Shown here in pieces: positions 3,601 through 61,452 of a stretch of 64,000 nt of DNA; position 1 is the first letter of the stretch; every line of letters starts with the position of its first letter. The notes below the pieces were generated by a model. It was not told where the DNA came from. It ran no database searches and saw nothing but the letters and a program-made list of their open reading frames with translations. The stretch comes from a virus, in IMG/VR virus record IMGVR_UViG_3300013117_000027. One strand, written 5' to 3'. The translations under genes and the position numbers were made by a program.

Positions 3601-6600
3601 ACAGTTTAATATGGCTTACGCTGTTAATATGACAGGTAGTAAGAACGGTCTTTTCAAGACAGCGGCTGATACATTAGACTTTACAGTTCATTCTACTACA
3701 AGTGTAAGGGCAGGGGATTTGCCTGCTGACTCTAAACTTGCTAACGAGTTAACAAACATATACTCTAAAATTACAAAGAAAGTTAAAGACTTGTCTAAGA
3801 CTTTACACGGTGATCCTAATCACACTATCAGTGGCGAGATGTGGAAAGAAGCTTGTTCTCTTGTCTTAGCTAAGGAAGGTGTTACATTGCCTACTTTTAC
3901 AAGAGATGCTAATGTTCCAATGAAGGTTTCTATAGGTGGTGAAGATCATGTATTTAACTCTCAACTAAACGGACGAGTAACATCGTTACGCGTTGATGGA
4001 CGTCCCGGTGAGAAAGGAACACCGGGATTTATAGCGGATATAATGTTTGAGGCATCAGGTAACGATCTTAATAATGCTGCAGTTAATCATATGGGAACTA
4101 AGAGTATTGTCACAAGACTTAATGTTAAATCTGCCGAACTAGCATATGGTAAGTTTAATGTACTTCCCGATAACTATGCTATTATGAACTTTGATTTCTT
4201 AGACAAGAAATATTGGGGATCAATGAAAGAGATGATGATTAGGAAAGGTTTGGGTGTGTCTATGTATAACGCTAAACATGCAGCTACAGCAGAGCAACGA
4301 GCTTATGCTGTTAAATCTTACAAGAGAATAGCTAACTTAATAAGAGGTTCTTTTCCTGTTACACAGAATAAAGATGGTAGTGTTCGTTTTGGACCAAGAA
4401 ATCTTTCAGAAGATCCTAAAGAAATAATGAAAAAAATGTCAGCTATACGTATGAACGACATAGTTTACGAACTAGGAGCCGTAGGACATGAAGCGTCTTG
4501 GACTCGTAAGACGATGGAATCTTACTATAATCTTAGAGGTGGCGGTGATATGTGGAGAGGGCGAGATAAGATTAGAAATGAAGTGGCTGATCTTTTATTA
4601 GGTCTAGATAGTGCTGCTAGTAAGATAGAAAAAAGAACTCAACAAGTAATGACTACTGCTGATCAACGTACTCTTATCAAATTATTAGATCCTTTAGGAA
4701 TGATAGAAGATAATCTGAGACAACGAGATGAACTAGTTGGTGGAAGTATAGAATCGCATTATAAGACATTGACTAGAGATAAACAAGAGCAACTTATAAA
4801 AGGAGCACGTATAACTCCTTTCTTACAAGAGTTACCAGATTTACAAGGAGGTGGTAGTTTCTTAGGATTCTATGGCGGGTATCAACCTTCAGCTATTTAT
4901 AATAATAACGCTGGAAGAGATATAAAGTATATGCATGACGTGAAGTGGCAAAAGTCTTACTTTGAACAAACACATGTAAAAGACTCGCTATTCTCTACAA
5001 GAACAAGAAGACTTTTAAGATCCTCGATGGGTTATAGGAGACCTGGTTCAGGCGGTAGTAAACAGTTAGATGTAGCTAAGAAGTTCTTTAGACTGTCAGA
5101 GGCTATACAGAACAAAGGGGTTGCTGACTTAGCATCTGAACATATGTTAACCTTAGATAATATAGATGCTATTATTCACAGAAGAACTACAATGAAAGCT
5201 TTTGAAAGAGACTTAGAATCTCTGGCCGATAATAAGAATACACACGAGATAGCAGCTATTAGTGATTCTCTAGATGATATGCTTAAAGATGTTAACAAGG
5301 CAGAGTCTATTAATAAGGACGCAGTTGCTCATTCAATATTCCAGAAGACTACTGGTGAAAGACGAGAGATATTAGAAACTGTTGCTAAGAGAAATAACTA
5401 TCTACATCAAACAGAGATACAAGAATGGGCTGACCTTGCTGTTAAGAAGAAAGATATATTCTTCCTTCCTAGTAAATTTAAACATAAGGATAAGATATAC
5501 GGTAACGAAAGACTTACTATAACATTAGAGGATGCTGCTGAAGCTTTTAACAAAAAAGTTTTACCTACTGAACCATTAGATTCAAACGCCTTTCTTTCTA
5601 TGTTACGACTAGTCCAAAAAGGTGAGAAGTATAAGACATTGTCTAAAACTAATCAACAACTATTCGATATTGTCGATCTAGGTAATGGGAAACATGAGAT
5701 ACACTTAGGAGGTTTTCTAATGCCAGCACATGGACACGTGGGTAATATTGCCGATATGATGGATTCACAACAATACGGTATAGGTACACAGACTACTAAG
5801 ATGTCTTTTGACATGATGGAAGGATATTATATGTATGCCAAAGATATGATAGAAGGTAGAACTGATAATCTAGGTGCTCATTCAACAAGACTTTTCACTG
5901 ATCAGATGAAGATGTATACACATGCTCTTTCAATGGACAAAATGTCTGCTATGTTTAAGTCTACACAAACTGGAGTTATGCAAGGATTTCAAGCTGTTTA
6001 TAAGTCGGTAGATACACATATAGCTTCAGCTCATCAGGTAATTCAAGATATTGCATCAGACGCTCCTTATATAAAAAAGTGGTTTGCTACTAATAAACAA
6101 TGGACAAAAAAAGATGTCACAGGGGTACTTAACAGATTTACTCAGATGAAACTTAATACTATGACTGCTATGACAAGTACGTTATTCGATGAGAAACAAG
6201 TTGCAGTAAATTTTACTACAGGCAAACAAGAAATGATAGCTGACATGATTCAGAAAGGTACTAAAGAGTTTCAAGAGATGGTAGCAGAAATGAAACTAGG
6301 AAGAAGAACATTACCTGGAGGAGTTGCAGTAAGATTTCCAATGCTGCCTAATGGTGTTAATCCTGGATTCGAAGGTCCTCTGTTTGCTATGCCAGATGAA
6401 ATAGGTACAGGTTTACTAGGCATGAGTAATAATCATATGTACATGGTAGAACCTATCGGAGAACTCGTGAAAGCTGATAATGATGTAGACTTAATGGCGG
6501 TAGTAATGAAGTCTTTTAGTACTATAGAAGATATAGATAGAGCGTCTAGTGAATCTAGGTATAGTCTTAATAAGTTAATGTCGAGACTACAAGGTGGAGG

Positions 6601-18887: not shown

Positions 18888-21167
18888 ATGAACGGTAAGA
18901 ATGTATATTTTTCTAATAACACTGGTAGGATTATCAATGCTGTTGTTCCTGAACACTTTAAGATGGCCAGTGACAAGACCTCTAATGGGTACAAGTATGT
19001 AAATCTTCTCTACACTATAGAAGTAGATTTACTGTACGATTATCTAGATGACGCTAGGTATAGTAATAGTCTTGAATATTTTGACTACGGAACAGACTAT
19101 GATTATTTCGAGGTTACTCTTAACGAGAATGTTATTAGTGATACTGTTTATGGTGACAATATACCTATTAAGATAACTACACAACAAGAGTTTAATGACG
19201 GATTTCCTACGCGATTTAATATTGAATCTATTATACCAGTAAGTGGAGTAAGTTATGGCGCGTTAGGAATAGAGTACGTAAGAAAAACAGCTGAGGGTTC
19301 TGGTGTTCTTCTTATTAATACTGACGTAGACGCTTCTGAAATATTTCCTTCTGGTTATCAAACTATATCAATCAATATAGATCCTGTCGGAAGAGGTGTG
19401 TATGGTTCACCTTTATCTGGTTATAACTTTTTGGTAAGAGAACAGTCTTACGATGTAGCAGGTAATGATGAGATAATAGTCCCTCCTACAAGGCAAGAAC
19501 TCTTACAGTTATATCCTGAACAAAAAAAGATATGGGCCCAGTCTGGTGTAAGTGAGTTTTCTTATAACTATTGGGTTGATCATTATACTCCTAACAATGG
19601 AGCAGTGTGGAATGACACTTTAAAAACTTGGGAAGCGCGCGGATATTCAGAAGATTATTATCTTGATATGAATAATAACAAGGTGTACTATCGTACGTTT
19701 CTTAACAATCCACATGGTACAGGTAATTATAATGAAACGTATATGCCTTTAAAGTATGTTCCTATTAGTGGGACGTTTAAACTTTATGATCTAGATATAC
19801 TTCAAAGTGGACAGCTCGTCAATATAGATGCATCAGGAACTACATTGTACATACATAGTGGTATGTATGACTTTAGTCAGTTCGATGATAGAGATGAATG
19901 GTTCTCTCCTTACAAAGGTTATGATGAAAATGTTCCTCATGAATTTATTCCTAATGGTTACAAAGAGTTAAATCCTACAGGAGTTCTTCCTGCGATTCCT
20001 TACCAAGAAGTATCTTGGGAGTTACAACACGAAGGTGCAAGAGTAGGAGACGATTTTACATGGCAAGACGACGATACAGAACCTATTACTAATATGCTTA
20101 AGATTAAGAATGGCCAGAGTAGGTATATAGCAGAGTACTTTTATAAGATAGCTAATAAGATAGGTTACCTAACAACATTAGATTCTACCAAGTATATACG
20201 TTATGGTAATGGTAACTATACTTTCTCTATACAAGATATTACTAACAATAGACAAGAGTTTGATGTATCTTTATCCAAAGATCCTACAGATAGGAAAGCA
20301 GCTTGCTTTCATGGACTTCTTGTAAGACCATTTAGTACTATTGATCAATTAAACGTTACTTTCGACGTTGCATCAGATCCATTAGATCTTCAGGACTCTA
20401 GTATAAATATTTACGCAAGAGCACCTAAAGTTGGAACATCTTACAGCGAGATAAAACCTATTATACATGATAAACGAACTTATATGTTTAATAAACATTG
20501 GGGAGATGTTGATCTTTCTGGAGTAGTAGATCTTCATCAAGCTACAAATGATATAGTTTCTAGTGTACCATATGGTACATATAAAGGTGTATCGCTTATA
20601 CACGTTGACACTAGCGAGAATACTTACTATGAAACAATAGGTCAGTATTCTGGTTATATGGATCTTATAACAGAAACTTCTACTAATTCTAATAGATATG
20701 TTAAGATGGGATTTAAGGTAACAAAGAGAGTTGGTGATGTAGGTGAGCAAATGCTAGCAATGTCATGTAATTCAAGCGGAGAGTTTTGGGCACTAGATCT
20801 ACTTCCTAATGGAAGATTTAGAGTTAGGGATAATCTTAATACACTTATAAGTTATGACGGTATATTTGAAGAAGGAGATAACTTTGAAAGAGAACTTATT
20901 CTTGAGCGCGATACTGATTATGATTATGGTCCAGGTTTATATCCTTACCGACTTTATACAAGATCAACAGATACTAATCAAAGAGTAGCAGATAGTAGAA
21001 AAGATATATTTACTCAACATGGATTTGACTTAAGCGTTAACGCAAATGATCCTTCTGGAATTGTTGGTGATGTGTACGACTTTACTAAGTTATTTTACAA
21101 TACATGTACTGACATAGAATATGTACAAATTTATGAAGAATCAAGGGAGTTCGTAGATGGCCAATAA
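18888..21167 (+). CDS. Putative baseplate/tail structural protein, Ser-Gly rich
   Basis: 759-aa ORF following baseplate J; acidic, aromatic-rich. Confidence 0.5.
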   Translation: MNGKNVYFSNNTGRIINAVVPEHFKMASDKTSNGYKYVNLLYTIEVDLLYDYLDDARYSNSLEYFDYGTDYDYFEVTLNENVISDTVYGDNIPIKITTQQEFNDGFPTRFNIESIIPVSGVSYGALGIEYVRKTAEGSGVLLINTDVDASEIFPSGYQTISINIDPVGRGVYGSPLSGYNFLVREQSYDVAGNDEIIVPPTRQELLQLYPEQKKIWAQSGVSEFSYNYWVDHYTPNNGAVWNDTLKTWEARGYSEDYYLDMNNNKVYYRTFLNNPHGTGNYNETYMPLKYVPISGTFKLYDLDILQSGQLVNIDASGTTLYIHSGMYDFSQFDDRDEWFSPYKGYDENVPHEFIPNGYKELNPTGVLPAIPYQEVSWELQHEGARVGDDFTWQDDDTEPITNMLKIKNGQSRYIAEYFYKIANKIGYLTTLDSTKYIRYGNGNYTFSIQDITNNRQEFDVSLSKDPTDRKAACFHGLLVRPFSTIDQLNVTFDVASDPLDLQDSSINIYARAPKVGTSYSEIKPIIHDKRTYMFNKHWGDVDLSGVVDLHQATNDIVSSVPYGTYKGVSLIHVDTSENTYYETIGQYSGYMDLITETSTNSNRYVKMGFKVTKRVGDVGEQMLAMSCNSSGEFWALDLLPNGRFRVRDNLNTLISYDGIFEEGDNFERELILERDTDYDYGPGLYPYRLYTRSTDTNQRVADSRKDIFTQHGFDLSVNANDPSGIVGDVYDFTKLFYNTCTDIEYVQIYEESREFVDGQ

Positions 21168-46736: not shown

Positions 46737-46765
46737 TTGACATTTCATTGCGAATGAGGTATATT
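46737..46765 (+). promoter_or_regulatory. Sigma70-like promoter for the Rad52-like gene
   Basis: TTGACA-tttcattgcgaatgagg(17)-TATATT. Confidence 0.8.
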
Positions 46766-46796
46766 ATAACAGTAACATTCAACATAAGGAGAATGA

Positions 46797-47091
46797 ATGG
46801 ATTTAACAAAACTAAAAGACGATATGCCATACAAATGGAAGCCTAACAATGCAGTAGGAAAACGAATGAACTGTGTGGCGTATGTTGACTCAAGACAGGT
46901 TCAAGATAAACTTGATCAGGTTGTCGGACCTGATAACTGGCAGGATGACTATAAAGTCATTAATGGAAATATGTATGCAGGTGTTGGTATCAACGTAAGT
47001 AGTGATTCTTCATCACCTAGATGGGTGTGGAAGTGGGACTGTGGTACAGAAAGTAATACAGAACAAGCTAAGGGAGAAAGTAGCGATGCCT
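46797..47091 (+). CDS. Rad52/Rad22 (Sak-like) single-strand annealing protein, exon 1
   Basis: AYVDSRQVQDKLDQVVGPDNWQDDY...WKWDCGTESNTEQAKGESSDA; AAGGAG SD. Confidence 0.85.
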
Positions 47092-47116
47092 TGGTCGACC
47101 TTTTATAACTAACCTT

Positions 47117-47227
47117 TATTTCGAAAATAGTGATAAGTTTTATATTGAACGTTGGAGTAAAATATGAAAACAAAAATATATGTAGTGTATAAACTATATT
47201 TCGAAAATAGTGATAAGTTTTATATTG
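47117..47227 (+). repeat. 31-bp exact direct repeat (47117-47147 and 47197-47227)
   Basis: TATTTCGAAAATAGTGATAAGTTTTATATTG twice, offset by 80 bp. Confidence 0.9.
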
Positions 47228-48162
47228 GTAAGACTTGTAATATGAAATCTAGAATAAATGCTCATAAGAAGGAAGCATTAGCTAGAAAGTATAGAACATA
47301 TAAAATCAATTGGCTTAGAAAACATTTACTCAATGACGAAGAGTTAAAGAGTGAGATTTTATTTAGAACTAATGACGAGCGCGAAGCTTATGATGTTGAA
47401 CAAAAATTTATTATTAAGACATCTAATGATAATGTTAACTGTTCATATAATCTTCAATATCCATCTAATAAATCAGAAGCTGGTCTTTTAAGAATGGCTG
47501 AAATATTTGGAAAAGATTATATTATCATAAATAAACAAGGCACATTTCTATATGTACATAGTTTATCTAGATTCAGTAGAGAGAATAATCTTAACTATAA
47601 AGATCTTAATGCTTGTGCTCGTAAAAAAATAAATTCTTCACAAGGTTATAAAGTGTTCTATAAAGATGATTGGGATGACTTTTCTGAAGAAGAGAAGCAA
47701 CTTGAGATAGAAAAACATAAAAAATACAATCAATATAAAACAGAGAAGTTTAAATGTAGTGGTGATAAATATAGAAAAGAATATATTATTATAGAACCAA
47801 CTGGTAATGTTACCGAAATAGTTGGATTGTCTAGATATGTTAAAGATAATAAGTTAAATGATGGTAATATGACTTCAGCTTTAACTAATAATAAACTATA
47901 TAAAGGTTATCAGGTATTTTATAAGTCTGAATGGTATGAATTTGATCAAGATACACGGACTAAACTCATATCAAACTCTAAGAACTATCTTCCTAGAGGA
48001 TCAAAGAGATATAAAATAACAGATCCAAATGATAATATCGAGATAATCGTTGGACTTAGTAACTATGCTAATAAACATAAGTTACATGCACCTTCTTTAT
48101 CATCTTTAGCTACTGGTAAACTAAATAAATACAAAGGTTATAAAGTAGAAGTACTTGAATAG
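47164..48162 (+). CDS. Intron-encoded GIY-YIG homing endonuclease with three C-terminal DNA-binding repeats
   Basis: YVVYKLYF...FYIGKT...R...H; three ~50-aa repeats each ending in (Q/K)GY(K/Q)V. Confidence 0.88.
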   Translation: MKTKIYVVYKLYFENSDKFYIGKTCNMKSRINAHKKEALARKYRTYKINWLRKHLLNDEELKSEILFRTNDEREAYDVEQKFIIKTSNDNVNCSYNLQYPSNKSEAGLLRMAEIFGKDYIIINKQGTFLYVHSLSRFSRENNLNYKDLNACARKKINSSQGYKVFYKDDWDDFSEEEKQLEIEKHKKYNQYKTEKFKCSGDKYRKEYIIIEPTGNVTEIVGLSRYVKDNKLNDGNMTSALTNNKLYKGYQVFYKSEWYEFDQDTRTKLISNSKNYLPRGSKRYKITDPNDNIEIIVGLSNYANKHKLHAPSLSSLATGKLNKYKGYKVEVLE

Positions 48163-48421
48163 GGCCTTCAGGATGGAAGTCTTGAAGCAAACTCCTCTAA
48201 TTCAGGGGATACCCAAACAGATAAAGCTGTGGGCAATCCTGAGCGAAGCTCTGTAAAGAGAACGTGCAACGACTAACTGTGATGAATGTAGCAGTGTAGG
48301 CCTAAGTAGGTCGAAACGGGGAGCATCCTTTGGGATGGTGATATAGTCTAGTCTGCATGGAAACATGCAGCTGCGAGTAATGTCGCGGGATAAGATTAAC
48401 GACCTTGTCTGAATATAAACG

Positions 48422-48894
48422 TTAAGAGAGCTGCAGTTAAGTGGGGAGTTGGAAGATTCTTATACACTTTAGACATGATACTCTTAGATCAGAAAGATTA
48501 CAAAGGTCGACTCAAACCTTGTACAAAAGATGGTAAGATTCTTTGGAGTGGTGATGAAATCACTAACTACATCAATAAAACTATTAAGAATAAGAATACT
48601 AGTAAAACTTCTTACAGTAATGACCATAAACCAACTGCTGGAAGATATAATCCAGATAAAGGTGGTGCAAACGTTACGTATAGCAACAGTAGTGCTTATT
48701 CGCCTAATACTATTACTAAGGTCAAGAAACTGTCTAGAGATGGTAAGAAAGGTAAGGAAGTTCTTAAGGCTTACATACCTGCTTACAATAAAGTAAAGAA
48801 GACTGACTATAACAGTATAACGCAGTTTACTACAGACGTATTAATAAATGATCTTATATCGTTTGTTGAGAATACACCACCAGCAGACGTGTAA
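48422..48894 (+). CDS. Rad52/Rad22 (Sak-like) single-strand annealing protein, exon 2
   Basis: (F)KRAAVKWGVGRFLYTL is in frame with ORF 48475..48894; spliced CDS is 768 nt, 255 aa. Confidence 0.85.
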
Positions 48895-48917
48895 TATCAT
48901 AGATTACTTTCCTTTAC

Positions 48918-48953
48918 AGAGAATCTCCCTAAAAAGAGGTTCTCTTTTTTTTT
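48918..48953 (+). terminator. Rho-independent terminator
   Basis: AGAGAATCTC-cctaaaaa-GAGGTTCTCT followed by a T run. Confidence 0.75.
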
Positions 48954-49013: not shown

Positions 49014-52000
49014 ATGAATTATCAAGAAGTAATAAAAGAACTTCATGGAAAACTCGAAGACTATCTTAAGTCTCAAGGAGTTGAAATAACATCAAATGGA
49101 TTCTTCTGCTGTATTCATCCGGATCATCCAGACAGATATCCTTCTGCTTCTCTTAACTACGGTAACGAGTTAAAAGGAAAGGTATTCCACTGCTTTAGTG
49201 GTAGAAGTCATGATGGAAACATATTTACTGCTGCTCATTGGTTAGAAGGTCTACCTTTACAAGGACATGACTTTTGGGAGCATACAATGGTAGAGCTATG
49301 TAAAAGATATAACATAGACTATGAGCCATTGGAAGTAGATGAAGGCACAAGAAGACAGTATCAAGCTTATAAAGCCACAAGAGATGCTGCTAAGATTATA
49401 CATAACATGATCTATGATGGTGATGATCTGAAAGATCACGTAGGTATACGTCATCTTCTAGAAAGAGGAGTAACAAGAGAAAGTATAGAGAAGTGGGGTA
49501 TAGGTGTCCTTACATCTTTCAAAGACTATAAGCACGGTATTCAACAGCTAGGCCACAATGATGAGAACTTCCTGTACTCTAAGGACTTGATGAACAAGAA
49601 TCTGTTCAACAGAGACAGCTTCATCATACCTATACATGACCACTCTTCAAGAGTTGTAGGGTTTGTTACAAGGAACTGTAGGATTAATCCTAATGATCAT
49701 GTGACAAGAAAGTATATTAATACTATTAATACTGACATCTATGAGAAGGGTAGCATACTCTTTGGATATCATAGAATAAAGAACATGAGCGGGCCTCTCT
49801 ACATAGTAGAAGGTTACTTAGATGCTATCATGTTAGAGCAAGCTGGTCTACAAAAAGTTGTAGCAATAGGTGCTACTGTTCTTACTAACCATCACATTAC
49901 AGAAACTTTGTTTAATGATCAGACAGATATAATACTATGTCTAGATGCTGACAAGGGTGGTGAGGATGGAGTTAAGTTAGCATTAGAAAGAATGGCGTGC
50001 TACCGTAAGTTCAACGTTACTATCATAGATCTACCTAGAGACTACGATCCTGACACATACGTTAGAGAGTTTGGAATAGAAGCTTTCCAAGCGTTAGAAA
50101 AGTTGTCTCCATTTGCATGGTCTTTAAAGCACAGTGAGTACAGTGACGACATGACAATTGTAGCAGAAAAGATGATACCTATCATCGCAGCAGAAGAGTC
50201 TTCTATCACTAGACTTAGAATGATAAGAGATTTGTCTAACTATACAGCTATACCTGAACTAGATATCAGAAGAGATGTAGACGCATTAGTATCTAAAGAA
50301 GATGATAAGTACTTACAAGGTATACGTGATATTAATCAGTATGCTGGTGCTCAGTTATCTAGACGTAAGGTCAGTGACACTAAGAGTATTCTAAGAGATG
50401 CTCTTAATAAAGTAGAGATCTTAGACGAGAAACACAATAGTGTAAAAGATATGCAGAATGAGTATATGAATAAGTTACAACATCTAGATAATAAGTTACA
50501 AGAAGGTGACTTTAAGTACGGACTTCTATGTCCAAAACATAAAGGTATTGAGACTACATTAGATGGTATACCTTACTGGACTTGTATGACACTGTTCGGC
50601 GGAAGACCATCGGCAGGAAAAAGTTTGAGACCTGGAACACAGGTATTAATGTACAATGGTAATATAAAAAAGATAGAAGATGTTAAAGTAGGTGATCAAT
50701 TAATGGGACCAGACTCTAATCCTAGAAACGTTCTTGCATTAGGTACAGGTGAAGAGGAGATGTATGATATCATACCTAAACGTGGCATGAAGTGGGGATG
50801 TAATGAACCACATATACTGTCTCTTCGTATGAGTTCTGATAATGGTGATGTATATAAAAAAGATGATATTATTAACTTACCAATAAAGGATTATATGTGT
50901 AAAAATACTAAGTTTAAACATCATGCTAAACAATGGAGAACTGGTTGGGAGTTACCAACTAAACGTATACCATATGATGCATATTATATAGGTAGTTGGT
51001 TAGGTGATGGTAGTAAAGATAGTGCTGAGATAACAACTGGTGATCCAGAGTATGTAGAATCTTACTATAAAGCGTTTGCTAATAAGTTTGGATTTAGAAT
51101 GTCTAAATATCATCAAGAACGTAATACATACGTATATAGAATGTGTAAAACTTCTGGTAAAACTAATCCGCTCTTAAATTATTTAAGAGATAAGTGTTTG
51201 GTTAATAATGAGAAACGTATACCTAAAGAATACTTACATAACTCAAGAACCATAAGACTAGAACTATTAGCTGGACTTATAGATACTGATGGATATCTTG
51301 TAAGAAAAGATTCTGGAACATATGAAATTACTACAAAATACGCACGTCTAAGAGATGATATACTTTACCTTGGAAATTCATTAGGATTCTTATCTACATA
51401 TAGTGATAAGAAAGTAACCATAAAAGAAGGAGATGTTAGAACTTACTATAGAATACATATATCAGGTAATATACGTGAAGTTCCAGTTAAGATAGAACGT
51501 AAGAAGTCTATAACTTCTAATAGAAGAACTAATCATCAAAACGTTGGCTTTGATATAAAACATACTGGAAAAGGTAAGTACTACGGAGTTGTTCTTGATA
51601 ATGATCATCTATTCTTACTAGCAGATGGTACCGTGACACATAATACGGCTTTCATGACAGACTTGTCTCTAGATATAGTAGAAGCTAACGACGACGCTGC
51701 TATCTTTTACATGTCTATAGACGATAACATGGATTTACTAACAACCAAGATGTTAGCTGTAAGAAGTGGTCTATCTACTACTGAGATAAAAGGTTACAAA
51801 GATCTTAGAGGTGAAGACAGAGATTCTTACCATGAAGCTATGCAGTTCTTAAAGAACAATGCTGACAGGTTTATCATAGCTGACGCTATACAAGGAAACA
51901 GTGTAGACGCATTAGAGAATCATGTAAGATGGTTTTGTAGAGAGTTCAAAGACCAGAAGAAAGTGTTCTTACTAGATAACTTTCACAAACTTAGGATGGA

Positions 52001-52433
52001 GATAAGAGGTCAGACAAGAAAGAGCGACGCTATCAGTGATACGTCTCAACAGATTAAAGAGATTACTCAGTTAAATGACATACATATAATGTCTACAGTA
52101 GAGCTTAGAAAGCTTCAGACTAATACTGATAGACCTACAAGGAATGATATGCAAGGTAGTGCTAAGCTAGACTACGATGCAGATGTTATAGGACTTGTTC
52201 ACAATGATATGCAGGTGAATAGGAATACAAGACTTGTTCACTACCAAGATGTTCACGGAAAATCGAGAGCGATGCCATGGATAGAGTTATCAATAGATAA
52301 GAACAAGATAAACGGTAAGGACTCACAGATAGTGTATAAGTACAATAAGCACAACATGCAGTTCTCCGAAGGTAGTACTAAAGACTTTTATAAGTTAAAA
52401 GATCAGATGAAACAACGTAACATAAACTTCTAA
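49014..52433 (+). CDS. DnaG-type primase / DnaB-type helicase fusion with intein
   Basis: Zn-finger CIHPDHPD...FHCF; KYINT..TDIYEKGSILFG; Toprim IVEGYLD and LDAD; Walker A GGRPSAGK|T; LLDNFH; GSAKLDYDAD. Confidence 0.9.
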   Translation: MNYQEVIKELHGKLEDYLKSQGVEITSNGFFCCIHPDHPDRYPSASLNYGNELKGKVFHCFSGRSHDGNIFTAAHWLEGLPLQGHDFWEHTMVELCKRYNIDYEPLEVDEGTRRQYQAYKATRDAAKIIHNMIYDGDDLKDHVGIRHLLERGVTRESIEKWGIGVLTSFKDYKHGIQQLGHNDENFLYSKDLMNKNLFNRDSFIIPIHDHSSRVVGFVTRNCRINPNDHVTRKYINTINTDIYEKGSILFGYHRIKNMSGPLYIVEGYLDAIMLEQAGLQKVVAIGATVLTNHHITETLFNDQTDIILCLDADKGGEDGVKLALERMACYRKFNVTIIDLPRDYDPDTYVREFGIEAFQALEKLSPFAWSLKHSEYSDDMTIVAEKMIPIIAAEESSITRLRMIRDLSNYTAIPELDIRRDVDALVSKEDDKYLQGIRDINQYAGAQLSRRKVSDTKSILRDALNKVEILDEKHNSVKDMQNEYMNKLQHLDNKLQEGDFKYGLLCPKHKGIETTLDGIPYWTCMTLFGGRPSAGKSLRPGTQVLMYNGNIKKIEDVKVGDQLMGPDSNPRNVLALGTGEEEMYDIIPKRGMKWGCNEPHILSLRMSSDNGDVYKKDDIINLPIKDYMCKNTKFKHHAKQWRTGWELPTKRIPYDAYYIGSWLGDGSKDSAEITTGDPEYVESYYKAFANKFGFRMSKYHQERNTYVYRMCKTSGKTNPLLNYLRDKCLVNNEKRIPKEYLHNSRTIRLELLAGLIDTDGYLVRKDSGTYEITTKYARLRDDILYLGNSLGFLSTYSDKKVTIKEGDVRTYYRIHISGNIREVPVKIERKKSITSNRRTNHQNVGFDIKHTGKGKYYGVVLDNDHLFLLADGTVTHNTAFMTDLSLDIVEANDDAAIFYMSIDDNMDLLTTKMLAVRSGLSTTEIKGYKDLRGEDRDSYHEAMQFLKNNADRFIIADAIQGNSVDALENHVRWFCREFKDQKKVFLLDNFHKLRMEIRGQTRKSDAISDTSQQIKEITQLNDIHIMSTVELRKLQTNTDRPTRNDMQGSAKLDYDADVIGLVHNDMQVNRNTRLVHYQDVHGKSRAMPWIELSIDKNKINGKDSQIVYKYNKHNMQFSEGSTKDFYKLKDQMKQRNINF
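50622..51644 (+). mobile_element. Intein (341 aa, LAGLIDADG) in helicase Walker A
   Basis: Starts SLRPGTQVLM, ends LADGTVTHN, +1 Thr; IGSWLGDG and LAGLIDTDG. Confidence 0.92.
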
Positions 52434-53291: not shown

Positions 53292-53535
53292 CATCATCAA
53301 TAATATAAGTATAGACAAGCTTCCTCCTGAAGTACAAGATGCTATATTGAGAGAGTTTTCAACTCTCTCGTTAAAGCATAAAGTTATTGTCTATTCTAAA
53401 CTTGTACACGGACATATGTTTAAGGTGACTTCTAATGACTTTTTCAACATTAACAAGCAGACACCTAGTGTAGTGTACAGAACGTTTTTAAGGAACGTTA
53501 CAGATAGAGTGAGAGGTGAATATGAATCATGTTAA
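53281..53535 (+). CDS. Small hypothetical protein, possible helix-turn-helix
   Basis: GAGGT SD; weak resemblance to sigma region 4. Confidence 0.4.
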   Translation: MKNNIINNISIDKLPPEVQDAILREFSTLSLKHKVIVYSKLVHGHMFKVTSNDFFNINKQTPSVVYRTFLRNVTDRVRGEYESC

Positions 53536-53608
53536 AGAAATTCCTAAGATAGTGAAGTACGGGAAAAGAATACCTGTTGCAATAAATAATACTATTCCGA
53601 AAAAACAC

Positions 53609-53637
53609 TTGACTTCTGTATGCGAATCAGGTATATT
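53609..53637 (+). promoter_or_regulatory. Sigma70-like promoter for the glycosylation cluster
   Basis: TTGACT-tctgtatgcgaatcagg(17)-TATATT. Confidence 0.75.
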
Positions 53638-53654
53638 AGAAGGGAAGATACAAG

Positions 53655-53909
53655 ATGAATCTAAGACTAGATATAGACAAGTCAGATCTGGAACTGATGA
53701 AAGACAGAGCAATACTAGAACTAAATCCAAGCAGAAGAGAAAGAATACAGATAGCAACAGTTCAAACGTTTCAACAACTAAAGGATACGATAGACTTCAT
53801 AAGGAAGGAAAGGGAACTAAAGACGAACCTGCTTCAAAGTCTAGGAAAAAGAAAGTTAGATCCAACCAAACCAGTGATTAGTTCAACAACGTTTATAGAA
53901 TTAATATAG
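53655..53909 (+). CDS. Hypothetical protein (84 aa)
   Basis: Follows the promoter and an AGGGAAG SD-like motif; helical composition; ends just before the GT gene. Confidence 0.6.
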   Translation: MNLRLDIDKSDLELMKDRAILELNPSRRERIQIATVQTFQQLKDTIDFIRKERELKTNLLQSLGKRKLDPTKPVISSTTFIELI

Positions 53910-53917
53910 GAAATAAT

Positions 53918-56539
53918 ATGAAGAAAAAACTACTAATAATAGCGGACAGTATCAAGCGACAAACTGGCTATTCTACTGTCGCTACTAACATAATCAATAA
54001 CATAGACCATTCGAAGTTTGAGGTAGCCCAACTAGGTCTTGCTGATATACCTGTTGACTATACTAAGACTAAGTTACCAGTACATCACTACTCTGTGATG
54101 AAAGATCATTCTCAGTGTTGTAAACGTGGTCACTTAATAGAATACTATAATAAAGATACAGGTGAGCTAACTAATATTGTTCCTAACCTTACTGTAGACA
54201 ATCATCCACAACAAGGTATATGTCCAAGAGGAACTAATTTACCAGGAGATGTGTTCGCACAAGAATCAGCATTCTTTGTTATACAACACTATAAACCTGA
54301 TATAGTAATAGCTATCAATGATGTATGGGCGTTGTATCATTATAATTTTCTACGTAACAGAAAAGACTTTGTGTATGTACCTTACCTAGCAGTCGATAGT
54401 GAGTGTTTTCCAATGCACATCCATGCTCAGAAACCAGGAATGCCACCTATAGATACTTTAAAGTTTCTTGGACTGAACGATGAGACTGTAGTATTTACCA
54501 ACTTCGCTAAAAAAGAGGTAGATAAAACAGTAGAACTTGCTACAGACGGTGGAAAACTTGCTAAAGATATTAAGATTATACCTCATGGTGTTGATATTTC
54601 ATCTTTTAAACCTCTTGATAACAAGAAAGAACTAAGGAAGAAATATTTTCAGATAGAAGATGATAGTGTATTCTTGATAGGATGTGTTCAACGTAATCAA
54701 CCTAGAAAAAGAATGGATGCTATCTTTCAAACTTTAAAGATACTTAAAGATAAGTATGAAGAAAAAGGAAGAAAGATAATGGTTCACTTTCACTGCGCTA
54801 TGAATGATAACCTCGGATGGGATCTTCCGCACTTAGGAAAAGTATACGGAGTACTAGATTCGTGTGTGTTTGATAATAAGTTATCTCCAGGAATGGGTGT
54901 ACCAGTTGATGTTCTAAACGAGATTATTAATTGTTATGATATGCACTTAACTTTAACAAATTCGGAAGGATGGTGTAGTTACGGTCATACCAATGTCTTA
55001 ACGGAAAGTTGTATTAAAAGATTAGATGAGATAACTGATAATGATAAAGTTATTACTCACACAGGTAAGATAAAGAAAGTTCTTAAGCCGTTATCTAGAC
55101 ATTATAGTGGTGATATGATAAAAATTAAATATACTGGTGCGACAAGAGAAGTGTCTTTCACGCCTAATCATAATGTGTTAGTTCGTAGAAATGATACTAA
55201 TGCGTGGGTAAGATCTGATGAGTTAACTATATCAGATAGGTTATGTTTACCTATTCCTAAATTTGAAAAACAAGATTCAATATTACATATAAAAGATCTT
55301 ATTCAAGGTATAAATGTAGTCAATGAAGATGATCAACTGTTAATATTGACTGATTATAATAAGAAAGACGGAACATATGTATCACACATTAATAAAAAGA
55401 CAGTTCCCATTAAAGCTGTATGGAACATAGATGAACAAATGGCCACACTATTTGGAAACTTTATAGCAGAAGGATCAACTAATAGTAGTCAAATAACATT
55501 TTCTATTAATGCTCAAAGAGATAATATTATTAGAAAAAATGTTATAGACTTTGCAACAAAGTTTAAACTTAAGTATAATCAATATATCATGGAAAGAAAC
55601 AGAGAAAATATATCTGTAAGTTCGACGATATTATCGCATATGTTTAAATCTTTTGGACAAGGTGCTAAGAATAAAGTAATACCTCATGAAATATTTAATA
55701 TAGTTTCAGGAAATAGTAAGTTAACCAAAGCGTTATTAAACGGATTAATAGAAGGCGATGGATGTTTTAATACACAGAATGCTATTACTTATACAACTAT
55801 ATCAAAAACACTGGCATACCAAGTGAAGACTTTATTTCTTAGTCTTGGCATATTTGCGAGAATATATGAACACAAAGAACGAAAATCATTTGATGTTTGG
55901 GTGCAAGGTGGAAATAATATTAATGAAATGTCTAAATGGATAGATAAGATACCTAATAACATAAATCTTCCACAACAAAAACGTAATATTCAAACAAAAC
56001 AAGATAATGATTATTTCTATCCTAAGATTAAAGGAATCATAAAAGAAGAATATAACGGTGTAGTGTATAATATAAGTGTGGAAGACGATGAGTCATATAT
56101 AACTGAAGGATTTGCTGTTCACAACTGTCTTCCTATCTTAGAGACAATGAGCGCAGGAATACCTAATGTTATAACTGACTACTCAGCTCATGGAGACTGG
56201 GCATCTGGAACAGCATTAAAGGTAAAGCTAGCGGCTAAGATACATGAAGTTAAAACTAACCACATCAAAGGTATAGCTGACATCAACGACGCAGCTAAAA
56301 ATGTGTCACTACTATATAAGTCAAAGAAACTATTGAAAGATTATCAGAAGAGATCATTAAAGCTTGCTAACAAGTTAGAATGGTCAAAGGTTTGCACTCA
56401 ATGGAACAAGCTTCTAGATGAACTAGACTTAAGTAAGTTAGAAGATGGAAGATATGATCTTACAGTAATAGAACCTGCTAACGAAAGCATTATCCCTGAT
56501 AACCCAGTAACAACACCTTTTACCCTAGTGGAGGTATAG
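53918..56539 (+). CDS. GT-B (GT4-like) glycosyltransferase with intein
   Basis: TGYSTV; IIPHGVD..SFKP; VQRNQPRKR; EGW|CLPILETMSAGIP. Confidence 0.88.
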   Translation: MKKKLLIIADSIKRQTGYSTVATNIINNIDHSKFEVAQLGLADIPVDYTKTKLPVHHYSVMKDHSQCCKRGHLIEYYNKDTGELTNIVPNLTVDNHPQQGICPRGTNLPGDVFAQESAFFVIQHYKPDIVIAINDVWALYHYNFLRNRKDFVYVPYLAVDSECFPMHIHAQKPGMPPIDTLKFLGLNDETVVFTNFAKKEVDKTVELATDGGKLAKDIKIIPHGVDISSFKPLDNKKELRKKYFQIEDDSVFLIGCVQRNQPRKRMDAIFQTLKILKDKYEEKGRKIMVHFHCAMNDNLGWDLPHLGKVYGVLDSCVFDNKLSPGMGVPVDVLNEIINCYDMHLTLTNSEGWCSYGHTNVLTESCIKRLDEITDNDKVITHTGKIKKVLKPLSRHYSGDMIKIKYTGATREVSFTPNHNVLVRRNDTNAWVRSDELTISDRLCLPIPKFEKQDSILHIKDLIQGINVVNEDDQLLILTDYNKKDGTYVSHINKKTVPIKAVWNIDEQMATLFGNFIAEGSTNSSQITFSINAQRDNIIRKNVIDFATKFKLKYNQYIMERNRENISVSSTILSHMFKSFGQGAKNKVIPHEIFNIVSGNSKLTKALLNGLIEGDGCFNTQNAITYTTISKTLAYQVKTLFLSLGIFARIYEHKERKSFDVWVQGGNNINEMSKWIDKIPNNINLPQQKRNIQTKQDNDYFYPKIKGIIKEEYNGVVYNISVEDDESYITEGFAVHNCLPILETMSAGIPNVITDYSAHGDWASGTALKVKLAAKIHEVKTNHIKGIADINDAAKNVSLLYKSKKLLKDYQKRSLKLANKLEWSKVCTQWNKLLDELDLSKLEDGRYDLTVIEPANESIIPDNPVTTPFTLVEV
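54974..56125 (+). mobile_element. Intein (384 aa, LAGLIDADG) in the GT4 E-x7-E motif
   Basis: Starts CSYGHTNVLT, block B FTPNHNVL, FGNFIAEG and LNGLIEGDG, ends GFAVHN, +1 Cys. Confidence 0.92.
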
Positions 56540-58667: not shown

Positions 58668-59377
58668 TGAAAACTATTACACTACCAGTAGCTACAAGAC
58701 CACACTATCTTAGACAAATGCTTGACACTCTTAAAGAGAATAACCTCGAAGGTTATAAGCTATACGTTAATGCAGAACCTAATCAAGCTGTTATAGATGT
58801 TATTAGATCTGTAGACTTTATACCTACTACTGTTATAGTTAATAGAGACAGACTAGGTGTAAGACAAAATCCTTACAACTGTATCCAACGAGCGTTTGAT
58901 GATGGTAGTACGTTTAATGTACACTTAGAAGATGATATAATATTATCACCAGATACATTACAGTTAGCTTCATGGTACTATAAAGAGTACAAAGATAAAC
59001 CTTTGACTCATCTTAACTATGGTATGTTTAACTATAAAAGCAATCCGGATGAACCTGATAAGATTCAAGTTATAGAAGGTAAGTTTATAGGACTAGGATG
59101 GTGTACTTTTAAGGAGTGTTGGAATAAATGGTATAAGCCTTACTGGTTTGACGATAAGATTAACGCAGAGGTATGGTCACCACAGACTGTTGGATGGGAT
59201 TGGTCTATAGCTGCCATAGCTAAGACAGATAACCTTACATCTCTACAACCTTTAACCTCTAGGACTAACCATATTGGAAGAGTAGGTGGTACTTATTGTG
59301 GAGCAGACTTTCACGATAAAACTTTTCCGCAGATAATTATTAACGACGAAGAAGTAGACACATTCGAGGTAATATAA
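58667..59377 (+). CDS. GT-A glycosyltransferase resembling GT13 (GnT-I/POMGnT1) catalytic domain
   Basis: RPHYL; HLEDDIILSPD; GLGW; WDW; P..SRTNHIG..G. Confidence 0.7.
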   Translation: MKTITLPVATRPHYLRQMLDTLKENNLEGYKLYVNAEPNQAVIDVIRSVDFIPTTVIVNRDRLGVRQNPYNCIQRAFDDGSTFNVHLEDDIILSPDTLQLASWYYKEYKDKPLTHLNYGMFNYKSNPDEPDKIQVIEGKFIGLGWCTFKECWNKWYKPYWFDDKINAEVWSPQTVGWDWSIAAIAKTDNLTSLQPLTSRTNHIGRVGGTYCGADFHDKTFPQIIINDEEVDTFEVI

Positions 59378-61452
59378 TGAAAGATAAGAAACTGCTTATT
59401 ACTGGAGGCACAGGTTCCTTTGGGAACGCTGTGCTAGACTTGTTCTTGCCTACTGACATAGGTGAGATAAGAATCTTCTCTAGAGATGAGAAGAAGCAAC
59501 ATGATCTTAGAATGAAGCATCAGAATGATAAGATAAAGTATGTCATAGGTGATGTAAGAGACTATCAAAGTGTTAACGCTGCTATGGTAGGAGTAGACTA
59601 CGTGTTCAGTGCTGCTGCTTTAAAGCAAGTACCTTCGTGTGAGTTCCATCCTATAGAAGCGGTTAAGACTAACATTCTTGGCACAGAGAACGTTCTAAAT
59701 GCTGCTGTTCATAACGGCGTGAAGAAGGTTGTTTGTTTATCAACAGATAAGGCATGTCTTGATTTTCATTCACCTATTGAATTAGACGATGGTACAACTG
59801 TTAAAATATCAGATATTGTTAGAGATAAAAAATGTGTCTCAGTAAAAACATTTGATGAAGATTCTAAAAAGTTTAAGATATCGGAGACAGTTGGATGGTA
59901 TAAAACTAAACTTAATGGAAGAAAAATGATTTCTATTTCTTATGAAAATGGATTAGTCCATGGTAGATATCATCAGCGCGTTTTAGCTACAGAAGATCAT
60001 GATATTTTAACAAGTAAAGGTTGGAAAAGTGCTGGAACTTTATCAAATAAAGATATGATAGTTACTAACGAATATAAACCAAATGATAAACAAAAGTGTG
60101 TTCTTCTTGGGACTATTTTAGGAGATTCATCTTTAGTTAAATCTAATAGTAATAGAGCTTATCTGAAAATGGGACATGCTAAAGATCAACTACAGTGGTT
60201 AAGACTAAAAGCGGACGCTCTAGATATGAACTATAGAAAAGATACTGTTAATATAAATAAAGATAATAGACAAGATTTTTACAATGTATATAGCAAAAGT
60301 AGCGCATATTTAACAGATATTTACGATGATATCTATATTAATAAAGTGAAAATTATTCCAAGAAAAATGTTTGCTGAATGTTTTAATATAGATAGTAAGC
60401 TATTATTATCTACATTATTACAAGATGATGGTTGTATTACACGAGATAACTTAATAAGACTTGCTACACATAGTTTTACAAAAGATGATGTTGAATGGTT
60501 AACAAAATATTTAACAAAGAATGGATATGAATGTAGTCCGTATAAATGTGTTGTTAATAATGAAAAATATAATACTGTTTATTATGAAACAAGATTTACA
60601 AGACGTGGATCTAATAAACTAATCAAAGATTTACGTGGATATTTTATATTAGACTATAAGATTAACTGTGTAGATTCATTTGATAAAACTATATGGAATA
60701 TAAATAATGTTAAAGAAATATATTATGGTAAAGCTATTGTTAATAATCATAAATATATATCAAAAGATGTATATTGTTTAGATATTAAAGATACACATAA
60801 CTTTATTGTTAATAATGTAGTTGTTCACAATTGTTATCCTATCAACGCTATGGGAATGTCTAAAGCTTTGATGGAAAAGGTATCTATAGCTAAGGCTAGA
60901 ACTAACATAGATACTATTATTTGTAATACAAGATATGGTAATGTAATGGGAACTAGAGGATCTGTTCTTCCTGTGTTCATTGAACAGATAAAGAGCGGTA
61001 AACCTATAACTATCACTGATCCATTGATGACAAGGTTTATGATGTCACTACAAGAGGCTGTAGAGTTGGTACTGTATGCGTTTAACCACGGATTACAAGG
61101 AGATACCTTTGTACAAAAATCACCAGCTGCGACAATAGCAGACATAACTGTGGCCATGGCTGAGATATTTAATGTTAATCCTATGTACAAGGTTATAGGC
61201 ACTAGACATGGTGAGAAAAAGCATGAAGTGTTAATAGGTAAGGAAGAGATTTTGGTAGCTTCAGACCGTGGGGCTTACTACAGTGTTCCTATGAACAATA
61301 AGTCTATTAACTACCACAACTACTGTGCAGGTGATGACAGACTTACTCAAAATGAATACTACGGTTCAGATAACACTAACAGACTTAGTGTTAAAGAACT
61401 AGTGGAGTTACTTAGTAAACAAGACTTTGTTAAGGAGGCACTAAGTGCGTAA
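59377..61452 (+). CDS. fnlA: UDP-GlcNAc 4,6-dehydratase/5-epimerase (FnlA/CapE/WbjB family) with intein
   Basis: TGGTGSFG; FSRDEKKQ; AAALKQVPSCEFHP; STDKA|CYPINAMGMSKALME; TRYGNVMGTRGSV; IGTRHGEK. Confidence 0.9.
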   Translation: MKDKKLLITGGTGSFGNAVLDLFLPTDIGEIRIFSRDEKKQHDLRMKHQNDKIKYVIGDVRDYQSVNAAMVGVDYVFSAAALKQVPSCEFHPIEAVKTNILGTENVLNAAVHNGVKKVVCLSTDKACLDFHSPIELDDGTTVKISDIVRDKKCVSVKTFDEDSKKFKISETVGWYKTKLNGRKMISISYENGLVHGRYHQRVLATEDHDILTSKGWKSAGTLSNKDMIVTNEYKPNDKQKCVLLGTILGDSSLVKSNSNRAYLKMGHAKDQLQWLRLKADALDMNYRKDTVNINKDNRQDFYNVYSKSSAYLTDIYDDIYINKVKIIPRKMFAECFNIDSKLLLSTLLQDDGCITRDNLIRLATHSFTKDDVEWLTKYLTKNGYECSPYKCVVNNEKYNTVYYETRFTRRGSNKLIKDLRGYFILDYKINCVDSFDKTIWNINNVKEIYYGKAIVNNHKYISKDVYCLDIKDTHNFIVNNVVVHNCYPINAMGMSKALMEKVSIAKARTNIDTIICNTRYGNVMGTRGSVLPVFIEQIKSGKPITITDPLMTRFMMSLQEAVELVLYAFNHGLQGDTFVQKSPAATIADITVAMAEIFNVNPMYKVIGTRHGEKKHEVLIGKEEILVASDRGAYYSVPMNNKSINYHNYCAGDDRLTQNEYYGSDNTNRLSVKELVELLSKQDFVKEALSA
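59755..60831 (+). mobile_element. Intein (359 aa, LAGLIDADG) in FnlA active-site loop
   Basis: Starts CLDFHSPIEL, ATEDHDIL, LGTILGDS and LLQDDG, ends NVVVHN, +1 Cys. Confidence 0.92.

Follow-up and report, generated by a model that had tools for sequence, protein, structure and literature searches.

A putative mobile group I intron in the annealase gene of an uncultured phage, with its endonuclease gene in the P1 loop

We describe here a locus at positions 46,797-48,894 of a 64,000-nt stretch of virus DNA (IMG/VR record IMGVR_UViG_3300013117_000027; the whole stretch is called the window below), in which a predicted annealase gene is interrupted by a group I intron that carries a homing endonuclease gene of its own. 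The source is a large uncultured marine phage, one without a close cultured relative, the locus having found no match by megablast among the INPHARED phages. Calling of open reading frames (ORFs) with translation table 11 in 46737-48945 returns three of them, of 103 aa (46797-47108), 332 aa (47164-48162) and 139 aa (48475-48894); in other words, the annealase gene is called as two fragments, a point of interest for annotation. The region reads as a single transcription unit on the + strand, apparently bounded by a sigma70-like promoter of the annealase gene (TTGACA-17-TATATT, 46737-46765; 11 of 12 consensus positions, and a consensus match only) and, after the gene, by an intrinsic-terminator-like hairpin followed by a T run (48918-48945).

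The related loci with which the window is compared were gathered through short proteins resembling the first exon and through relatives of the endonuclease. L003, L004 (also L005 and L010), L006 (also L007), L008, L012, L013, L014 (also L015) and L016 come from assembled metagenomes, and L009 is an IMG/VR-derived locus; the contigs of several intron-bearing relatives measure 58 to 230 kb. Wherever eight loci are compared below (for P1, for cofolding and for the position of the stop codon), they are the window, L003, L004, L006, L008, L009, L012 and L014.

An interrupted annealase gene and its ribozyme

Exon 1 (46797-47091, + strand) holds 98 codons of a Rad52_Rad22-family annealase and the first base of a Phe codon, and exon 2 (48422-48894, + strand) supplies the last two bases of that codon, 156 further codons and the stop. 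Joining 47091 to 48422, which the initial annotation had proposed on the grounds that it rebuilds a conserved motif, produces a reading frame of 768 nt for a protein of 255 aa; the joined exons read GATGCCT followed by TTAAGAGA, the translation contains GESSDAFKRAAVKWGVGRFLY, the protein runs GESSDA-F-KRAAVKWGVGRFLY across the junction, and the ligated-exon junction is predicted to read GATGCCTTTAAGAGA. The spliced protein is colinear with three uninterrupted homologues, P0001-P0003, which are 255-261 aa long and, over exon 1, 79-83% identical to it. Against PHROG 1097 ("Erf-like"), exon 1 covers profile positions 32-104 and the frame entered at 48424 covers positions 106-216; as these positions are consecutive, the two exons encode adjoining parts of a single protein that is split inside a codon. 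One of the three homologues is encoded by an intronless allele in L002, a syntenic contig that shares neighbouring genes, including the primase-helicase, with the window, and there the site reads GATGCT followed by TTCAAGAGA. This empty site, together with the colinear homologues, makes the junction first proposed exact to the base.

What kind of protein does the interrupted gene encode? Exon 1 alone scores 18.9 bits against Pfam Rad52_Rad22 (PF04098), slightly below the cut-off of 20.3, and the intronless homologues P0001-P0003 score 38.9-41.7 bits. Exon 1 is matched by 96 longer database proteins, with P0001-P0003 the closest, and 84 of the 96 carry PF04098 in their precomputed annotation, and a comparison with solved Rad52 or Sak structures gave no sequence match to the annealase. 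The host gene is predicted to encode a Rad52_Rad22-family (Sak-type) single-strand annealing protein (SSAP). The intron enters at the Ala-Phe codons of the most conserved motif, between SDA and FKRA, and adjoins the conserved KR residues. A few genes upstream of the annealase gene in L002 lies a free-standing 228-aa gene (2970-3656) with a weak match to I-TevI_DNA-bd. That an annealase is an unusual host had been remarked at the outset, and the full-text literature, the coverage of which is incomplete, yielded no report of a group I intron interrupting a Rad52, Sak, Erf or SSAP gene. The host gene family would therefore be new for group I introns and would add Rad52-type annealases to the phage genes known as hosts of mobile group I introns, a literature negative being a weak sign of novelty; a phage recA gene that hosts a group I intron has already been published (phage 0305phi8-36, PMC3239194).

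The intron itself spans 1330 nt (47092-48421, + strand) and ends in G48421. An Infernal search of 1.7 kb with the Rfam model RF00028, a check that the initial annotation had suggested for its group I assignment, matches 48129-48370 with 86.7 bits (gathering 50; E 2.8e-22) over the full model, 1-253. The ribozyme was missed when the whole 64-kb window was searched with Rfam under gathering and E-value thresholds, an effect of speed filters and not a sign of absence. Standard whole-contig Rfam scans can thus miss such ribozymes, and other windows that were scanned only whole may hide introns.

The ribozyme core (48166-48421, + strand), as drawn from RF00028 and RNAalifold, opens with P2, an 8-bp hairpin directly 3' of P1 (48166-87), and continues with P3 (48192-97/48318-23), P4 (48202-07/48237-42), P5 (48212-14/48231-33), P6 (48243-65), P7 (48271-75/48344-48), P7.1 (48276-95), P7.2 (48299-312), P8 (48324-37), P9 (48353-70), P9.1 (48373-86) and P9.2 (48388-410), all on the + strand. 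RNAalifold, run on six ribozymes, recovers P2 to P9.2 with compensatory changes on both sides in 34 of the 64 consensus pairs, P7.1 and P7.2 being among the helices with such changes, and P7, a pseudoknot that RNAalifold does not draw, covaries in the alignment (GACUA/UAGUC vs GACCA/UGGUC). In all introns compared, the last intron base is G and the last base of the 5' exon is U. The core DNA finds its best matches, with 70-74% identity over ~180 nt, in phage introns, Twort-like and T4-like ones among them, and these matches together with P7.1 and P7.2 make the intron IA2-like (td/Twort type), a label given without a formal subgroup classifier. A ribozyme-family profile search of the window returned no second intron copy. 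The model score, the covarying core helices and the terminal G bear out the earlier call of a group I intron; the comparisons demonstrate the intron and its core helices at the level of sequence, and the intron is apparently functional and self-splicing. Among sequencing runs, no RNA run was listed for this sequence, and two marine DNA runs share 5-10% of its words; their reads gave contigs of 151 nt and no joints, a result that bears neither on splicing nor on intronless variants.

Is the insertion peculiar to this phage? The same intron stands at the same codon (after GAUGCNU) in L003, L004/L005/L010, L006/L007, L008, L009, L012, L013, L014/L015 and L016, a recurrence that covers at least ten phage sequences related to the window. 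What comes next in each intron-bearing relative is a GIY-YIG gene with 33-67% identity to that of the window, and then, wherever the contig extends that far, a homologous ribozyme and exon 2. Alleles with the intron are greatly outnumbered, with about six protein clusters vs more than 90 intact ones. Occupied and empty sites side by side, at a motif this conserved, are the pattern that a homing element produces. Homing elements as a rule target the most conserved sites, and the insertion site in the annealase gene fits that rule.

The relatives also differ within the intron. A second homing endonuclease gene, of the HNH_3 type and 182 aa, accompanies the GIY-YIG gene of L1 in L006 (5129-5677; in L007, 1426-1974) and apparently lies in the P6 loop, the ribozyme homology being split at positions 116/136. 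Insertions of ~70 nt are found in L6 of L012 and L014, and one of ~65 nt in L5 of L008.

A P1 helix closed over one kilobase

In the window, P1 is formed by six pairs, G47088-C48165, C47089-G48164, C47090-G48163, U47091.G48162, U47092-A48161 and G47093.U48160; the guide sequence UAGGGC (48160-48165) thereby pairs with GCCU-UG (47088-47093, the hyphen marking the splice site), and U47091.G48162 is the splice-site wobble. The distance from the 5' splice site to the guide sequence is 1070 nt in the window and 830-1076 nt over the eight loci, and it is occupied by the endonuclease gene. The four exon pairs of P1 are formed in all eight loci, and the third pair varies on both sides: GCCU/GGGC is found in the window, L003 and L012, GCGU/GCGC in L004, L006, L014 and L009, and GCAU/GUGC in L008. 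All of the pairs survive in only 0.34% of permutations. Since the loci are kin, this covariation amounts to at least two compensated events and not to eight independent ones, and it demonstrates, as far as sequence comparison can, the long-range P1. The earlier proposal that the endonuclease gene lies in the P1 loop thus holds, with the gene between the 5' splice site and a guide sequence that covaries with it. A guide sequence located between the splice site and the ORF would put the ORF in P2; we looked for one by eye in 47095-47163 and rejected the idea, as the segment holds no RGGC complement to GCCU. The covarying GNGC, which sits directly 5' of P2 in all loci, also speaks against it.

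Does pairing go on beyond these six base pairs? We lean towards an extension of P1, an interrupted closure stem of ~25 bp in which the first ~26 nt of the intron would pair with the final ~30 nt of the endonuclease ORF. The 5' strand of P1 with its putative extension would cover 47088-47117 and the 3' strand 48133-48165 (both + strand), with UCGA 47095-98 pairing with UUGA 48155-58, CUUUUAU 47100-06 with GUAGAAG 48145-51, and UAACCUUU 47110-17 with AAAGGUUA 48133-40. When the first ~45 nt of each intron were cofolded with the ~60 nt ending at the guide sequence, an interrupted helix that prolongs P1 was found in seven of the eight loci. As a control, the true partner was ranked among all other 40-nt windows inside the same intron. 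It came 7th in the window, 3rd in L003, 1st in L004 and 5th in L006, of ~195 in each case (top 0.5-3.6%), and 24th of 191 in L008, 10th of 150 in L012, 18th of 146 in L014 and 14th of 150 in L009 (top 7-13%), where the extension helices use other sequences. The Fisher combination, with four close relatives collapsed to one value, gives p = 0.004. A stop in the frame of exon 1, TAA 47106-08, falls inside the 5' arm of the extension and in four relatives is the UAA of UAACC; in-frame stops soon after the 5' splice site are the norm (PMC3073962). The locus is a test case for how P1 can form across a translated loop of 1 kb.

The endonuclease gene and the two ends of its reading frame

The gene that fills the P1 loop (47164-48162, + strand) encodes a 332-aa GIY-YIG homing endonuclease with three C-terminal repeat modules of ~45 aa. 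It scores 27.2 bits against Pfam GIY-YIG (PF01541; cut-off 22.6), and Y20, G22, R30, H34 and E79 are invariant among seven homologues. An AlphaFold model (pLDDT 82.8) matches the I-TevI catalytic domain with TM 0.74-0.75 and probability 0.98, and it also matches I-HmuI (E 2e-3) and, weakly, the I-TevI DNA-binding domain. The C-terminal two thirds consist of the three repeats, each of which ends in YKGY, and match PHROG 2081 (6.5e-15). The Pfam NUMOD families gave no match to these repeats, even at E 10, and we do not label them NUMOD1. The endonuclease gene is apparently intact and its product probably active.

The start of this gene has been rebuilt in the window. A tandem duplication of ~80 nt at the ORF start (47110-47182 vs 47190-47260; 38 nt at 95% identity, then 22 nt at 82%), the upstream 38-nt copy of which lies at 47110-47147 (+ strand, 95% identical to 47190-47227 inside the endonuclease ORF), overwrote an element that is conserved in the 5' untranslated region (5' UTR) of the relatives. 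The duplication is also the source of the Shine-Dalgarno sequence and the AUG now in use and of a new hairpin that covers this AUG. This hairpin (47138-47169, + strand) is a 9-bp one, 47138-46 with 47161-69, whose loop holds the Shine-Dalgarno sequence GGAG (47153-56) and whose stem includes the AUG (47164-66). In L003, L004, L006 and L008, the 5' UTR element AGCUUAUACUA pairs with the GIY-motif codons GUAGUGUAUAAGCU and so encloses both the Shine-Dalgarno sequence and the AUG (L003 3020-3088, L004 4328-4396, L008 3968-4036, L006 3973-4032). These hairpins are stronger than that of the window and different from it, with z values down to -4.3 (in L003), and they resemble those of I-TevI and mobE; a start-site control element comparable to that of I-TevI seems to be present in the intron family. 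A conserved TATACTA element upstream of the relatives' endonuclease genes was considered as a promoter and set aside, TATACTA being not enriched in the window (67 matches vs 61 expected); the element more likely forms the 5' arm of a hairpin and base-pairs with the GUAGUGUAUAAG codons.

At the other end, the reading frame runs into the guide sequence, an overlap that the comparison establishes at the level of sequence. The TAG stop (48160-48162), which the initial annotation had already seen to overlap the guide sequence, makes up three of the six nucleotides on the 3' side of P1, and its G takes part in the splice-site wobble. Counted from the first base of that strand, the stop comes at 3 nt in the window, reaching the P1 3' strand, at 12 nt in L008, reaching P2, at 144 nt in L004 (P7.2), at 186 nt in L014 (P7.1), at 192 nt in L003 (P9) and at 246 nt in L012 (J8/7-P7), and at 90 nt in L006 and 202 nt in L009. 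The C-terminal extensions that look "conserved" in an alignment of the endonucleases are ribozyme read as protein. Variable extension lengths after stop loss are the subject of the core-creep hypothesis of Edgell, Chalamcharla and Belfort (PMC3073962), and the spread of stop positions in this intron family is the pattern that core creep predicts. Published overlaps of ORF and core run from 0 to 81 nt (Table 1, PMC3073962), and those found here, up to 246 nt, are much longer. In the endonuclease tree all forks are open as to which stop is ancestral and which derived; since six of the eight loci read through, including the most divergent, the in-guide stop of the window may be a secondary truncation, a direction that we infer from counts. 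The family of at least ten introns offers a natural series for core creep, with stops that range from the guide sequence to J8/7 within one family.

Translation and splicing on one RNA

How do these parts work together? We hold it highly probable that the locus is a mobile, self-splicing IA2-like group I intron in an annealase gene, with the GIY-YIG gene in the P1 loop and a long-range P1. The endonuclease ORF would fill the P1 loop, so that the 5' splice site (after U47091) would pair with a guide sequence ~1.07 kb downstream; the extended, interrupted stem would close the ORF into a loop and probably help the long-range P1 to form. Splicing would join GAUGCCU to UUAAGAGA and restore the 255-aa annealase. 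A ribosome that finishes the endonuclease ORF and a folded P1 would be mutually exclusive on one RNA, and endonuclease translation is probably kept low by the start-site hairpin or takes place mainly from the excised intron. Several observations weigh against this reading. The window's own start-site hairpin is weak and A-U rich (z -1.97); the minimum-energy cofold of L008 is without the extension; no pair of the UAACCUUU/AAAGGUUA helix changes on both sides, and L006 and L008 each lose one of its pairs through a change on one side; the conserved YKGYK codons also restrict the AAAGGUUA 3' arm; and we infer endonuclease activity and homing from conservation only.

With the guide sequence inside the endonuclease ORF in all members, a ribosome on the last codons must open P1 and its extension, and in the relatives it must also open most of the core. 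The conflict of translation and splicing is in this sense a physical fact, and it may be put to regulatory use. Coupling of this kind is an established idea for I-TevI/td and not a new one; overlap of ORF and core, in-frame stops after the splice site and interference of ribosomes with splicing have already been described (PMC3073962, PMC3984707), and for I-TevI, ribosome occupancy of the core led to a splicing defect once the start-site hairpin had been opened (Gibb and Edgell 2010, as reported in PMC3073962 and PMC3984707). That homing depends on the interrupted gene is a reasonable thought and not one special to an annealase. We have also considered a bolder scheme, which strikes us as quite improbable, in which splicing would be gated by ribosome clearance at both ends of P1, a tRNA(CUA) would give amber read-through, and one transcript would be switched in time between making annealase and making endonuclease; the exon-1-frame stop does lie in the 5' arm of the extended P1, the 3' arm of which is the end of the endonuclease ORF. 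If this were true, the switch would operate in the very gene that repairs the endonuclease's cut.

Could the stop codon inside the guide sequence be something more specific, i.e. a selected device that, with a P10 formed by the last endonuclease codons, couples termination of the endonuclease to the splicing of an annealase that homing itself needs? The TAG does lie inside P1, the ORF runs over the guide sequence in all relatives, and recombination functions are required for homing (general knowledge; PMC3073962, Figure 3 legend). CUUGA (48154-48158), three nucleotides away from P1, is moreover complementary to UUAAG (48422-48426) at the start of exon 2, so this much of the P10 put forward in the initial annotation stands. 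The P10 itself fares less well: chance alone would put a pairing partner for UUAAG within 8-12 positions in 9-13% of cases, and the closest relative, L003, which has an identical start of exon 2, reads AUCGA in place of CUUGA. UUGA 48155-58 in the window is better explained by its pairing with UCGA 47095-47098 in the P1 extension. The relatives keep a P10 of 2-3 bp that directly adjoins P1 and covaries (GA with UC, AA with UU), and the window keeps only one pair of it because the T that creates the TAG replaces a pairing base. The overlap of stop and guide sequence, too, is confined to the window allele, the relatives carrying GAG or AAG at the position of the TAG, with six of the eight loci reading through for 90-246 nt and one stopping at 12 nt. 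We consider a selected device unlikely, and the coupling of stop codon and P10 is not supported as a conserved mechanism.

Another way to make sense of the TAG is to suppose that it leaks. A phage tRNA resembling an amber suppressor would then yield an endonuclease longer by 37 residues and translation that invades P2-P7, and expression of the suppressor would time the switch. Read-through would add 37 codons, to a TAA at 48274-76, and bring ribosomes to P7; relatives have a sense codon at the TAG position and similar extensions, and a tRNA with anticodon CUA is encoded ~8.8 kb beyond the end of the window, on L017, a near-identical contig of 139,679 bp (20224-20366, minus strand; Rfam tRNA 41.6 bits, E 2.9e-7). 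This tRNA has a 72-nt variable-region insertion and a putative function, however, and it is called by the Rfam model only, ARAGORN having found no tRNA in the window or in L017. TAG is also an ordinary stop in this phage, ending 11 of the 39 main ORFs of the window (TAA ends 28 and TGA none), and conservation of the ribozyme RNA explains the similar extensions. We regard a leaky TAG as very unlikely. As a separate observation, the TAG of the ORF at 53516-53881 is in frame with the next gene (53918-56539), and read-through would fuse the two. Less probable still is a decaying relic, in which the intron would splice poorly or the endonuclease would be dead, so that the annealase gene would effectively be a pseudogene. 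The duplication of ~80 nt that rewrote the endonuclease 5' UTR in the window allele speaks for decay; against it, both exons are intact and in frame, all core helices are there, as are the U.G wobble and the terminal G, and they covary with the relatives, and the endonuclease ORF is full-length with its catalytic residues conserved.

Set beside known systems, the mobile intron proposed here has a layout that is uncommon but of a known kind. It resembles the T4 td intron with I-TevI in the IA2 features P7.1 and P7.2, in a GIY-YIG catalytic domain (TM 0.75 to 1mk0) joined to repeats that may be modular DNA-binding ones, and in an ORF whose 3' end overlaps ribozyme helices and whose start lies in an RNA hairpin, with the resulting conflict between ribosomes and splicing (PMC3073962). 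However, the I-TevI gene occupies the loop of P6, and its overlap with P6a/P7 amounts to 20 nt, whereas here the P1 loop and the guide sequence are concerned, and the host there is thymidylate synthase and here an annealase, with no late promoter identified. The closest published architecture is that of the Synechocystis PCC 6803 tRNA-fMet intron with I-Ssp6803I, the ORF of which is in P1 and overlaps P1/P2 (61 nt; Table 1, PMC3073962); that endonuclease, in contrast, is of the PD-(D/E)XK class, its ORF is short and its host is a bacterial tRNA gene, while here a GIY-YIG ORF of ~1 kb sits in a phage protein-coding gene and its relatives overlap the core by up to 246 nt. Bacillus phage 0305phi8-36 likewise has an intron with a homing endonuclease, I-Bth0305I, in a recombination gene (PMC3239194), although its recA host encodes a RecA-type strand-exchange ATPase and not a Rad52-type annealase, and the endonuclease is of another family. 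The orf142 introns of Staphylococcus phage Twort, finally, are among the strongest DNA matches to the core (~74% over 174-178 nt) and share the P7.1/P7.2 fold; their host gene is a different one, and the likeness is drawn from the ribozyme core alone.

The surroundings of the locus are dense in homing elements. Inteins lie nearby in the window at 49014-52433, 53918-56539 and 59377-61452. The primase-helicase of the window, for example, has 1139 aa vs 803-814 aa in L002, L003 and L006 and contains a LAGLIDADG-type block, and a glycosyltransferase and an epimerase of the window show Intein_splicing and LAGLIDADG matches. Phages of this group also encode a Sigma70_r2 protein (L004 1976-2764, L006 1450-2262, L008 1672-2499, L017 17365-18213), and the window's own promoters are sigma70-like in appearance.

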